DNA of 64,000 nt from Octopus vulgaris (lineage: Eukaryota): positions 73,594,001 through 73,658,000 of the forward strand of contig OX597822.1 of the NCBI GenBank assembly GCA_951406725.2, in the 5' to 3' direction. The position numbers and the translations under genes were made by a program. Positions 1,868 through 63,663 of the stretch are shown here, piece by piece (position 1 is the first letter of the stretch; the number at the start of each line of letters is the position of its first letter). The notes under the pieces were generated by a model. That model was not told where the DNA came from. It searched no databases and saw only the letters and a list, made by a program, of their open reading frames with translations.

Positions 1868-1904
1868 TGTTTCCGACGAAGAGCTCCGCTCGAAACGTCA
1901 TACC
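1868..1904 (+). ncRNA. Degenerate minimal hammerhead-like motif in a (TA)n-embedded element (about 1793-1998)
   Basis: gttt CCGACGA a GAGC tcc GCTC GAAA cg TC atac; core U4 changed to C. Confidence 0.5.
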
Positions 1905-2128
1905 CTCCTTCTTCCATTTTCTTGAGCGCCTAATAATAATAATACTGTAATTGTTCCACGTGTTGTTGTTTTTTCTGTTTTCCCGTTTGGATTAACCTTA
2001 TATATATATATATATATATATATGAGTGTATTTTTGCCTTGTTAACAATTAACACGGAAAAAATAAATAAATAGTTACCAAGGTAGCAAAAATTCACACA
2101 AGTAAAGAGGTTGTAACTCCTTGTTTTC

Positions 2129-2215
2129 ACTTCCCTGAAGAGAAGATTGCATTGTTTTATACCATTTATTCTTTTGAATAATATCAGTGAAATCTTCGAA
2201 ACATGTGTCGAAAGT
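2129..2215 (+). ncRNA. Type I minimal hammerhead ribozyme, core intact
   Basis: acttcc CTGAAGA GAAGATT(loop)AATCTTC GAAA catgtg TC gaaagt. 7-bp stem II, near-palindromic stem III, GUC site at 2207-2209, stem I 5/6 paired. Confidence 0.7.
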
Positions 2216-3025
2216 AAAAGTATTTGGTTTATACCTGAGTTAAACTCCATTGATATATATATATATATATATACACGCATATATATATATATATATATAT
2301 ATATATATATATATATATATATGTATGTATGTGAATATATATATATATATGTATATTGCTTACGTCATAAGTATTTGGAATTTTCGTGAGACATGAAATC
2401 ATTTTTAATGAGAAAACCATTTGGATGTAACATTTTAGACTTGGATTTTTCCCGTTAAAAACAATTCATATACATGTCTGTATATATGTATGTACGTACG
2501 TATGGATACGCATACACACATACACACCCACACAAACACACGCACATACACATATATACGTATAGATGTATATAGATGTATATTCGTGTAATGTTCAGGT
2601 GTTTATCATATATGGGGCATTATAAACATCGTTTACGATATTATCTGATACAGAACTCAATACAAACAAAAAAATCAAACCAAAATGTTACATCATAAGA
2701 AATTAAATTAGTCAAGTGTAACCTTTGTCTCAGCGGCTCATTGAGACTATAAACGATGAGGACTCGGAGTAAACTGTCACAATTTTTAATAAAATTATAT
2801 ACACACAGGGACACACACACACACACACACACAAACACACATGACATACACGCACATACTTAGTAATGCATTTATGTATGTTTGAATGTTTGTATGTATG
2901 TATGTATGTACACACACACACACAAACACACACACACACACACACACAAATACACACACACACACAAACACACACACATATATATATAATTGGATGACAG
3001 AGAAGAGGAACAGTGTAATCAAGTT

Positions 3026-3112
3026 CACTACCTTACAGCTGTTTCGTTCATAAGATGCAGTGTACTGAGAGCTGAGTGCATGTGCATTATCTTATAGCTT
3101 CCTCAGAGTAAT
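3026..3112 (-). ncRNA. Type I minimal hammerhead ribozyme, core intact
   Basis: Minus strand: attact CTGAGGA agc tataagat..gca..tgcatcttat gaac GAAA cagctg TA aggtagt. Palindromic ACAGCTGT stem III; stem I has one bulge. Confidence 0.62.
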
Positions 3113-59415: not shown

Positions 59416-62400
59416 GTGGGCACATGGTTTATGTTTTGTTCTCTTTTAAAATTTTGGTGACCCAAGTAGACTGAAGCAGTACCCATGGCTAGTGAAACTG
59501 ATTTTTGTCAGTGAACAAATCGCGGTCTTAAAGCGACGAAAATATTTTGACAAATTAAACTTAAATGTTGAAGTAAATCGAACGGCTTTTGTGTGTTTCT
59601 TAAATGGATTACAAACACCTTCCACGCTGCAATTGTTAAATTAATATATATATATATGTACATACAGAGAGAGAGGGAGAGAGAGAGAGAGGGGAAGAGA
59701 GAGAGAAAGAGAGAGAGAGAGAGAGAGAAAGAGAGAGAGATGAATCAGTGCAGTCTATGAGCTGTAGCGTGTTTGTGAGTAACTATTTTAATTAGTCTAC
59801 TGATCTTACCCATGATGTGGTCTAAGGGTTGATAGAAAAAAAAAAACTGCGTCAAGTTATGTCGTTTTTATGCTTGCTTTACAAGATGTGAACTGGTGTG
59901 TTGAAACAGATTTTGTTGTATCTTGAGAGGGTCGTTTAAAAAGTAAAAGGTAAAGACCCTCAACCCCCCCCCCCCCCCCTTCGATCATGAATGACCATCG
60001 GATTGCACTTAGAAAATTCCCCCTCCCAGGCACAAATCCGAGCAAGATTGTTTATAGAAGACCAGTAGCCACATATGCATGCCAATTTCCCCCTTCCACG
60101 CCGCCGATGTTATCCAAGGGAAAAGCAAAGGTTGATACAGCTTGGCACCAGTAACATCGCAACTCATTTCTACAGCTGAATGAACAGGAACAGCGTGAAA
60201 TAAAGAAGGCAACACACAGTCCGGTCTGGGAGGGTCATTATGCTAATAATAAACACACACTGATTCATTTTCACTTCTTTATTATTAGTTAATTGGTTAT
60301 GTATTTAACTAAGTTGCATTATATCAAAATATGACAAAGATGCCAGTAAGTTAAAACAGGACAGGAACACTAGTGGATTAAGAGATAACGCAACAGCAGC
60401 TGGGTTAGAGGGGCTTATAAACGGTTTCAAATTTTGACACTGGGCCAGCAATTTTAAAGGAGTAGCTAACTCTATGACATCGATCTACGTAGTGTACAAC
60501 TAGTTCTTGCTTTATCGACCCCGGAAGCATGAAAGGCAAATTCGACTTCTGCATCATTTGAATACAGAATTAAAGAGCCGGAGGAAATGCCGCCAGCAAA
60601 CGTCTCTGCTAGCTCAACGCCTTAGAGATTTCTTAAAATTTCGTTCTAATTTTGGTGCAACGCCTGCAATTTTCAAGGTAGAAAGCAAGTCGATTACTTC
60701 GATCTCAGTATTCAAGCAGTACTTTTTTTATTGACCTTAAAAGGGTGAAAAGCAAAGTCGACCTCGGCGCGTTTTGAACACAGAACGTGAACAGCAAAAA
60801 GAAATGCCACTAAGCACTCAATCTGACTCGCTAACGACTCTGCCAGCTCACCGCTTTACAGAGTCTCGTAAGTAAGATCTATTTTGTTTTATATTAAAAG
60901 CATCAACCAGTTTGCAGTAGGATTCAATACTAAAAACATAGAGCTACAGCACGATGTTTGTGAGATACAAGTAGATATACAAAATGAAGCAAGAACAACT
61001 TATTAATGCCATCGAATACCATCACAATACAATGTACATATTGCTGAAACAAGTAGCACTCAGCTACAATGGCCGCCATATTACTACATAATGCAAATAG
61101 CATATGTTTACAACCAGAATGACAGAAATGACCTAAAAAAAGAAAATGATACATGCAAGCCAGAAACTTAGCATGTTACAACATGTTTCAACTCGGCAAC
61201 CGGTTTGATGAGCTTCATATCATGTGGATTTATCAAATATTCTTTGTTTATATGTATGTGTATGTGTGTGTGTGTGTATCTATACATATATGTGTGTGTG
61301 CGTGTGTGTATGTGTATATAAATATGTATGTATGTATATATGTTTATAAATATATATGCATATATATATATATATGTATATATATGTAGTGTGTATATAT
61401 ATATGCATGATATATATATATATACATATGCATATATATATATATATATACATAAATATGCATATATATATATATATACATAAATATGCATATATATATA
61501 TACATAAATATGCATATATATATATATATATATATATATATATATATATATATATACATACATAAATATACATATATATGTATATACATAAAGAAGCATA
61601 TATATATATGTTTGTATGTATATGTATGCATGTATGTATGTATTATATGTATGCATGTATGTATGTATGTATATGTATGCATGCATGTATGTATGTATGT
61701 ATATGTATGCATGCATGTATGTATGTATGTATGTATATGCATGTATGTATGTATGTATGTATGTATGTATGTATGTATGTATGTATGTATGTATGTATGT
61801 ATGTAAAGTTATATATGTGTGTATATATACGTTGCTAATGGACCTGGATGTCTGCTATTTTTCAGTTATTTTTATAACCGGAGCAGCAGTAAAAATAATA
61901 GGACCTTTTGTAGTAAAACATTTATCTACCTCATTGATCATTATTATTATTATCATTATCATCATCATAATCATCATCATCATCATTATTATTATTATTC
62001 ACTAGACTTTCTTGTCTATCCAGTCGCATTTAAAACGATCTTCCGCCCCAGAAATAACAACAACAGCAGCAGCAGCAACAGCAGCAGCAGCAGCAACAAC
62101 AACAACAACAATCATACAAGAATCAATAACCCGTAGTATGTACATTTAGAACATGGAATACTCTATGCATTTTGTCTTTATGACGCTTCATCGCATATAA
62201 TATATATATATGCATGCATGAATGTATGTATATATATATACATTATATATATATATATGTATCTATATGTATATATATATATATATATGTGTGTATGTAT
62301 GTATGGATAGATGTCTATATATCTATATGCATACATACATACGTGCACATATATGTGTGTGTATATATAAAGACACACACACATATATATCTATATCTAT

Positions 62401-62537
62401 ATCCTTGCAGGCATAAACCATGGTTACACAGGTGCGCATATACACTCACAGACACGTATAGACATAAATGACCACTATGTGGAACATTTGCTAAACAACT
62501 TCTTCGTATATACACTAATTTTCAATGCATAGTTCAA

Positions 62538-62828
62538 TGCATAATACTATTTCTGCCTAGCATATGATTAGCAACAATTATTCTTTAAAACTAATACGCA
62601 ACTAGTGTATATATATATACTAGTGTAACAATGCATAATACTATTTCTGCCTAGCATATGATTAGCAACAATTATTCTTTAAAACTAATACGCAACTAGT
62701 GTATATAGTGCAACATTTGCTCAGTAACAATTGCATAGCATCAATTGTTTGCCAGCTGTTGCTTAGCAACATATGCTTAGCAACATATGCTTAGCAACAT
62801 ATGCTTAGCAACATGTGCTTAGCAGCAC
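62538..62828. repeat. ~75-bp direct duplication plus 14-bp tandem repeat (GCTTAGCAACATAT, about 5 copies)
   Basis: 62538-62612 repeats at 62631-62707; tandem units at 62761-62828. Confidence 0.9.
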
Positions 62829-63618
62829 TAGTGTTGTTTTAAAAGGGACATAAGAACGGTTGCTAAAATCTAGTGGACGGTTAGCGCTGACAAAGTATTT
62901 AGTCGAACAAACAGACCCCTGTACTTGTTTTTCTAAGTGATACATATTCTAACTGCTAATCTACTGGGACGTACACAAACCAACACCGGATGTCAAACGG
63001 TGGTGGAGGACAAACACAAGCATACACATGTGTATGTATACGTATATGTATACATACACACACATATATATATGTACATACATACATACATATATATACA
63101 TGCATATATATATTATATAAAATAAATAAATGCGCCCTTTTAAAGCCTGGCCAGGCTCATGGGCCCGGTTTCCCGGTTTCTATGGCGTATGTGTTCCCAG
63201 CTGCACAGGGCACCAGTCCATCGCAGCGTTACTCATTTTTGCCAGCTGAGTGGACTGTAGCAACGTGAACTGAAGTGTTTTGCTCAAGAACACAACGCGT
63301 CGCCCGGTCCAGGAATCGAAACCACAATCTTACGACCATGTTGCTGACACCCTAACCACTTAGTGATTAGGGTGATTAGGGATTATTATTATTATTATCA
63401 TTATTATTATTATTATTATTATTATTAATAATAATAATAATAATAATAATAATAATAATAATAATTACAATAATAATAATTATGATAATGATAATGATAA
63501 TAATAATAATAATAATAATAATAATAATAATAATAATAATAATAATAATAATAATAATAACAACAACAACATCGAAAAATACGTTAGGAATGAGAACCCA
63601 GGTTCGAAATTTCCCCAA

Positions 63619-63663
63619 GACACCTAATGAAGCTGGAGGGTATATCAGCCGAAACGTTGTGTT
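63619..63663 (+). ncRNA. Minimal hammerhead-like motif, one core substitution, next to (AAT)n
   Basis: GACAC CTAATGA a GCTG gagggtatat CAGC c GAAA cg TT GTGTT. Confidence 0.6.

Follow-up and report, generated by a model that had tools for sequence, protein, structure and literature searches.

Why should short sequences resembling the minimal hammerhead ribozyme recur beside TA and TAA microsatellites across 64,000 nucleotides of the Octopus vulgaris genome (assembly GCA_951406725.2, contig OX597822.1, positions 73,594,001 to 73,658,000; hereafter the window, with positions counted from its first letter)? An earlier note, made from the letters alone, listed eight such motifs and took them for non-autonomous mini-elements of a kind perhaps uncatalogued in this lineage. 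As a set the hammerhead motifs are real and mostly decayed, and they probably mark the 3' ends (the pseudo-long terminal repeat, or pseudo-LTR, region) of many families of Penelope-like elements (PLEs), each of which is likely to have been copied into (TA)n and truncated at its 5' end.

Hammerhead motifs in the window

The motifs were scored with a home-made relaxed descriptor of the type I hammerhead that was written after the motifs had been seen, and the controls used (40 block-wise dinucleotide shuffles, and the window reversed with its repeats and hairpins intact) are a fair test of the score and not of its choice. At a score of at least 10 the window holds 7 matches against a shuffle mean of 0.33 (maximum 2) and 0 in the reversed window, and at a score of at least 8 it holds 11 against a mean of 1.18 (maximum 4) and 2 in the reversed window, so the comparison with shuffled sequence proposed earlier as a check comes out in favour of the motifs. 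Pairing in stem I was tested on candidates picked without stem I and compared with permuted pairing: for 15 candidates (threshold 3) 41 of 75 positions pair against 28.2 (p=0.0008), for ten candidates 27 of 50 against 20.2 (p=0.024), and at two stricter thresholds there is no significant excess (n=6, p=0.12; n=5, p=0.09). The effect is thus weaker in the smaller and stricter sets, and at 3106 (minus) and 43774 (plus) the stems have decayed.

The eight motifs first listed are all present at their places and are of unequal quality. Five score 9.5-18.7 (2129, 63619, 44151, 1868 and 36486), two are weak (43770 and 3026) and the one at 61176 on the minus strand is not supported as a hammerhead, with three mismatches in its core. 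Their integrity had been rated too high: under exhaustive parsing with a strict descriptor (the exact core and 3 contiguous base pairs in each of stems I and II) 0 of the 8 pass, and the sole pass in the window is at 56508 on the minus strand. This is one of six sites added by the scan, the others being 41113 (plus), 59511 (plus), 40277 (minus), 6992 (plus) and 40388 (plus), the last three of which score 7.6-8.1 and are singly near shuffle noise. A site at 6098 (plus, score 8.15) and those scoring below 7.3 were dropped by eye as AT-rich noise, and a loose match at 18987, from a strict scan that lacked the extra nucleotide and returned 0 canonical matches, was given no rank by the later scorer.

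In the established hammerhead position numbering the core is exact at 2135, 3106, 43774, 56508, 40277, 40388 and 6992, is a U3-A8 covariant at 44187 and carries single changes at 1873, 36490, 63624 and 41113. The best parse places an extra nucleotide after position 9 and before 10.1 at 56508, 41113, 59511, 44187, 1873, 36490 and 43774, and the G10.1-C11.1 closing pair is found at 56508, 2135, 41113, 1873 and 36490. Stem III is self-complementary (ACGT, ACATGT, ACAGCTGT, ACAATTGT and, with G-U pairs, ACATGTGT), which is part of the descriptor and hence not independent evidence. Alignments of the units, scored without their TA tails, are clear for only three of 171 pairs (1868 with 36486, 36486 with 23514, and 40277 with 40388), and the description of the families as mostly unrelated therefore stands; the similarity of a further three pairs (z 3.7-5.6) has the look of AT-rich noise. 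Rfam gave 0 hits at gathering score, what two local scans hit included no hammerhead family, and an E-value scan of the whole window returned microsatellite matches to microRNA models and no hammerhead among the 150 of 371 rows listed. Co-folding yields self-dimers, among which the active fold is not clearly seen.

Insertion marks and the link to Penelope-like elements

Simple repeat makes up about 20% of the window, and tracts of (TA)n with n at least 5 number 131, giving a background of 0.141 for such a tract within 150 nt. At 8 of 14 sites a tract stands no more than 150 nt downstream of the cleavage site (P=2e-4), namely at 5 of 8 among the sites first listed (P=0.002) and 3 of 6 among the added ones (P=0.04), which were picked regardless of flanks and two of which share one insertion. 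Upstream of the motif only 4 of 14 sites have one (P=0.12). As to the islands bounded by (TA)n or (TAA)n of the earlier picture, (TA)n stands on both sides within 250 nt at 4 of the 8 sites first listed, and (TAA)n borders 63619 alone among them, on its 5' side. An asymmetry of this kind would be expected if target-primed copying began at the 3' end of the element and was directed into (TA)n.

Direct alignment shows three inverted pairs, of which two carry one-sided tails of 32 nt and about 56 nt, the longer of which (40985-41040) exceeds the published 30-40-bp range, and a fourth pair (2024-2127 with 2124-2252) is deduced from contig joints. No direct tandem (pseudo-LTR) of any unit was found in the window by self-BLAST or among the 150 of 171 Tandem Repeats Finder rows listed, and such a tandem is not required of truncated PLE copies.

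Evidence on whole families comes from the contigs of four public sequencing runs over one stretch, 1794-2250 (457 bases), covering the unit of family A (the family of 1868 and 36486) and that at 2129. Contigs at least 80% alike were taken, which favours the letters of the window copy, and summed depth does not equal copy number. About 6000 contigs per DNA run fall on the 457 bases, and therefore both units are high-copy. In run X1 the depth of family A peaks on the ribozyme at 4.5e6, stands at 4.1-5.9e5 over the tail and is 5.3e4 at the 5' end. Opposite-strand joints of 2127 with 2244/2250 occur in two contigs of the 2129 family and suggest an inverted 3' continuation of that family in 2024-2127; 0 of 32 listed pieces span both parts. 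Among 15 listed joints (24 in all) 12 connect the left part of 2024-2252 with its right part, and do so at different points, from 2064-2127 to 2124-2202. Stem I of this family is made complete by A>G at 2211, a change that takes up 27% of depth in X1 and 47% in X3, C>T at 2194 retains a G-U pair and the ACATGTGT stem III has no variant at or above 15% among the contigs. In family A the canonical U4 is outnumbered in each of the four runs, with 24-33% of depth, and so among contigs at least 80% alike U4C is a trait of the family; a lower in vitro activity has been reported for U4C, with viroid infectivity still possible (PMC3088659).

The variable breakpoints, together with the inverted copies and one-sided tails, agree with PLE ends that were truncated on the 5' side and not with mini-elements of fixed length, and the self-standing non-autonomous elements first proposed are not supported. 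PLE insertions are described as strongly truncated at the 5' end, with an inverted truncated copy there and a 30-40-bp extension at one end (PMC8557442), and in metazoan PLEs single and opposite-strand copies of the minimal hammerhead have been read as probable truncated PLEs (Cervera & de la Pena 2014, PMC4209133). The same work found the monomers inactive in vitro and the dimers weakly active. Its hammerheads share with those in the window the type I architecture, the extra nucleotide after A9, the G10.1-C11.1 pair, a palindromic stem III and the U3-A8 variant, and likewise fall into many divergent families, mostly single, with opposite-strand pairs 100-700 bp apart. The assignment to minimal type I hammerheads of the Penelope and retrozyme world, belonging to many unrelated families and with a (TA)n bias, is right. 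Differences are the very long stem II at 2129, 3026, 40277/40388 and 6992, the mostly U4C core of family A, and a density in the window of about one hammerhead per 5 kb with decayed copies counted. Octopus was not found in supplement file 2 of that study.

Closer to hand is Hydra-1_Obim of Octopus bimaculoides, which prefers (TA)n as its target and bears a hammerhead near its 3' end, at position 2403 out of 2507 (Craig et al. 2021, PMC8557442). The window units share that preference and the genus, and stem III at 2129 and 56508 (3 bp with a 1-2 nt loop) resembles the table for the Hydra clade (3-4 bp, 1-2 nt loop). Placement in a clade would take a reverse transcriptase (RT), and none was linked to any unit. 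The bias to (TA)n or microsatellites, 5' truncation, the inverted copy and the one-sided tail are also features of Naiad (Naiad_Obim, Naiad_Ovul) and Neptune PLEs. In the annotation of the O. vulgaris genome 190 PLE families make up 6.83% (PMC13282606), with which the approximately 5.4% of the window covered by the repeat units, at boundaries set by the analyst, may be compared. This abundance, and the pairing of hammerhead and (TA)n targeting already described for Hydra-1_Obim, speak against an uncatalogued kind of element: hammerhead-bearing PLE ends are of a known kind, known in Octopus, and the individual families may be unnamed. No octopus hammerhead survey was found in the literature searched on hammerheads, PLEs or SINEs (short interspersed elements) in Octopus and cephalopods, and the words 'hammerhead' and 'ribozyme' have 0 occurrences in the text and supplement of the 2026 O. 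vulgaris annotation (PMC13282606); the repeat libraries (that annotation, Dfam, Repbase) may already include these families.

Several observations weigh against the attribution to PLE ends. The sites at 56508, 63619 and 61176 have no 3' (TA)n. The variety of breakpoints comes from one family, and some of the 2024-2252 joints are inflated or blurred by divergence of loop II. Folded as monomers, 0 of 14 sites do better than shuffles (z -1.5 to +0.9), which is expected for minimal motifs and lends no support. Of 84 short frames that lie close to 15 of the 16 sites examined (none qualified at 61176), 0 gave a remnant of RT or of the GIY-YIG endonuclease at Pfam E<=0.05, the absence of which beside the units is expected for truncated ends; three weak Pfam hits (E 0.01-0.047), below curated cut-offs, were rejected as chance. 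Six window motifs had 0 hits in the supplement of Craig et al., where line breaks may hide matches, the one Hydra-1_Obim motif searched had 0 hits in the window, and canonical hammerheads are absent in Naiads, the ends of Naiad_Obim and Naiad_Ovul (3' ends) looking unrelated to the window units by eye. Lastly, non-autonomous derivatives of PLEs would leave identical insertion marks. Because there is neither an RT or GIY-YIG remnant nor a match to the published Octopus PLEs, we infer the link from units to parent PLEs from structure and abundance, and for single families a non-autonomous origin may yet apply, because no parent open reading frame was linked to them here.

On the PLE reading, and following the literature, the GIY-YIG endonuclease of the element would nick (TA)n and its RT would then start at the 3' end and copy the element's RNA; (TA)n would in this way come to lie directly downstream of the ribozyme, where the bias is observed. 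Copying would mostly halt after 80-300 nt and only the ribozyme-bearing end would remain; a tail-only copy, a depth that falls 5'-ward and the many breakpoints are consistent with such an early stop. A second, inverted piece often stands head to head with the first and has a one-sided tail, and it might originate in the resolution of the insertion. The ribozyme of a parent element would act as a dimer, through its self-complementary stem III, when it cuts a tandem precursor RNA. The copies in the window are likely to be inert because they are single and mostly mutated; such copies would not cut and would decay neutrally.

Self-standing elements, chance and host use

Some or most of the families could instead be self-standing non-autonomous elements with their own short, possibly circular RNA, mobilised in trans by PLEs, either as solo retrozyme monomers or as PLE-dependent SINE-like elements; this was the view first taken of the locus and seems to us unlikely, if the most serious competitor. 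Like the window units, animal non-LTR retrozymes are short, non-coding, PLE-derived and carry type I hammerheads, and solo monomers exist (PMC7229834; bioRxiv 10.64898/2026.07.22.740005), the preprint giving monomer shares that range from 0 to 1 and a derivation from PLE ends. They are, however, defined by head-to-tail arrays and circular RNA and described as tandem with canonical hammerheads, and no such array is seen in the window by self-BLAST or among the Tandem Repeats Finder rows listed, nor is there a go-back joint among the 15 of 24 joints listed, with 1990-2036 left out. The 5' ends are staggered too. The want of any coding remnant beside the 15 sites whose frames were searched suits self-standing elements, as does the depth of the family A ribozyme bin, which is about 60-260x the best bin of the 2129 family in two runs guessed to be RNA and about 7-12x in the DNA runs. 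This higher ratio is a weak hint of transcription, given that the RNA label is a guess and that the depth of contigs is an unreliable guide to expression which shows no ends, strand or level. Also on the side of self-standing elements is a 146-nt imperfect rod at 44100-44245 (minus; -62.9 kcal/mol, z=-5.43) that bears the ribozyme 44187-44157 at its tip. The inner arms of this rod have diverged further than the outer inverted arms have, and because of this the rod may belong to the RNA of the element and not to this one insertion.

It is accordingly doubtful, and still worth entertaining, that one family or more consists not of broken PLE ends but of an independent ribozyme retroelement, non-coding, very high-copy and specific to Octopus. 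Candidates are family A (1868/36486), with its non-canonical U4C core and possibly abundant transcription, and the unit at 43922-44433, with its U3-A8 core in a viroid-like rod. If true these would be the first retrozyme-like RNAs of cephalopods, none being found in the literature searched. Family A patterns had 0 matches in metagenome contigs and in viral contigs. In the guessed-RNA runs 1826-1921 is over-represented against its own tail about 150-fold or more (about 9-fold in DNA), which may reflect a well-transcribed sister subfamily with a different tail.

Chance matching in DNA so rich in AT and so dense in microsatellites is a very improbable source of the motifs. The 131 (TA)n tracts would lend it some colour, and 61176, 3026, 43770, 6992, 40277 and 40388 are singly within or near the shuffle range, so that for 61176 and single weak sites chance may hold. 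For the set it is refuted by the excess over shuffles at a score of at least 10, by the absence of such matches from the reversed window and by the pairing of stem I, which was not selected for; both units checked in the runs are moreover high-copy, and the depth of family A peaks on the motif. Hardly more credible is that the host keeps them as regulatory intronic ribozymes of the kinase pre-mRNA. The window is largely introns of a receptor tyrosine kinase gene and the hammerhead units at 12301-56289 are intronic, and the sole intact motif, 56508, is host-sense and lies upstream of the exon at 56289, at a distance of about 185 nt. Yet the strands are mixed, most copies are mutated, both units checked in the runs are high-copy repeats, and single minimal hammerheads gave no in vitro cleavage (PMC4209133).

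Overall the units read as ordinary products of PLE activity in a PLE-rich genome, and their importance is modest. They suggest that hammerheads could serve to identify part of the repeat DNA of octopus as PLE ends, in a genome of which 15% is repeat still classed as 'unknown' and in which 1279 SINE families are unclassified (PMC13282606), and Octopus may be unusually rich in hammerhead motifs. The natural variants (U4C, U3-A8, long stem II) offer material for asking whether PLE hammerheads must cleave, a question left open in PMC8557442.

Individual units, host gene and other elements

From the left of the window, 1430-1572 (plus) holds a 3' half-motif with GAAA, a palindromic stem III and UH at about 1537 but without a recognisable core; it lies 36 nt before (TA)n and its 5' boundary is approximate. 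This and 52075-52250 (minus; GAAA and stem III ACAGCTGT, again coreless) are the half-motifs earlier placed near 1520 and 52172, and 3' halves only they prove to be. The family A unit at 1794-1998 (plus), of a high-copy family, lies between two (TA)n tracts, its hammerhead at 1873-1899 (score 10.0) having the U4C core, an extra nucleotide after A9, a 4-bp stem II and stem III ACGT. Next to it the inverted piece 2024-2127 (minus), the likely 3' continuation of the 2129 family, stands head to head with the truncated end at 2124-2252 (plus), where (TA)n follows 44 nt past the cleavage site and the hammerhead 2135-2209 (score 18.7) has the exact core, one stem I mismatch, a long stem II hairpin and stem III ACATGTGT. 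Weak and decayed is 2990-3129 (minus), whose motif 3106-3034 lies between microsatellites (score 5.3, within shuffle range) and keeps the exact core and stem III ACAGCTGT with stems I and II broken.

The scan added a weak, decayed hammerhead at 6900-7127 (plus; approximate boundaries), with a long stem II in motif 6992-7070 and (TA)4 58 nt downstream. Just before it, 6690-6960 (minus) gives low-scoring hammerhead-like parses at 6816 (5.5) and 6959 (3.85) that point away from 6992 and shows a weak inverted match (67/100), perhaps another old head-to-head pair. At 23438-23518 (minus) a tail-only, ribozyme-less copy of the 36486 family (z=11.7) lies between (TA)n tracts and represents a shorter 5' truncation. 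The family A-related unit itself, 36440-36616 (plus), has its hammerhead at 36490-36517 (score 9.5) with an A6C core and a broken stem III, and (TA)n 100 nt downstream.

Two insertions added by the scan are composite. In 40155-40520 hammerheads 40277-40201 (minus) and 40388-40464 (plus) of one family stand head to head, the arms being identical at 119 of 150 positions, and in 40985-41272 (plus) the motif 41113-41146, altered in its G8/A9 region, is accompanied by an inverted 49-nt copy of the unit's 3' end (48/49 identical) with the tail of about 56 nt, (TA)n standing at both ends. The decayed hammerhead of 43690-43890 (plus; 5' boundary approximate) has an exact core at 43774-43826, stem III ACAATTGT and weak stems, scores 7.35, which is within the shuffle range, and is followed by (TA)n after 65 nt. 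The inverted-repeat unit 43922-44433 (minus) consists of arms 43922-44149 and 44197-44401 (186/203 identical) and a one-sided 32-nt tail at 44402-44433, its left arm abutting (TA)n; the U3-A8 hammerhead 44187-44157 (minus) within it scores 10.5.

The strictly intact motif, 56508-56474 (score 19.0), belongs to 56330-56620 (minus; 3' boundary approximate) and combines a 6-bp stem I, the exact core, an extra nucleotide, a 4-bp stem II and a 3-bp stem III with a 1-nt loop, with (TA)n on its 5' side only. The decayed hammerhead of 59425-59644 (plus), also added, has two core changes and a 7-bp stem I at 59511-59547, and (TA)n 97 nt downstream. At 61170-61235 (minus), the site of 61176, GAAA and ACATGT are present. 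The last unit, 63572-63760 (plus), has (TAA)n(CAA)n on its 5' side, no 3' microsatellite, and a hammerhead at 63624-63658 (score 11.5) with a G5A core, a 5-bp stem I and stem III ACGT. Directly 5' of it, in 63380-63570, (TTA)n turns into (TAA)n near 63427, forming an inverted microsatellite junction.

The host gene runs through ten exons on the minus strand, from 56289 down to 12301, and corresponds to residues 354-967 of the Octopus receptor tyrosine kinase XP_014790097.2. An 85-aa stretch of one kinase exon is 100% identical to a protein clustered with Octopus bimaculoides and O. sinensis records, and the same exon is 78-86% identical to named proteins of other molluscs.

Among the remaining elements a tRNA-like SINE head at 59340-59421 (minus) has motifs like the A and B boxes, whose consensus is well established, when read by eye, and passes into a (TAA)-rich run; neither ARAGORN (0 tRNA genes) nor Rfam called it, and it stands back to back with the hammerhead unit 59425-59644. 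Elsewhere in Octopus such a head may presumably be joined via (TAA)n to a hammerhead unit of the 63572-63760 type, as a tRNA-headed, ribozyme-tailed SINE. A perfect 576-nt palindrome at 21912-22487, with 288-nt arms 100% complementary and no spacer, is possibly an assembly artefact; it sits within an apparent RT fragment of a long interspersed element, so labelled by eye from the translation. Also labelled by eye is a mariner-type transposase in three stop-separated pieces at 56986-57972 (plus), and a 184-nt SINE-like unit is present in 2.3 tandem copies at 29719-30145.

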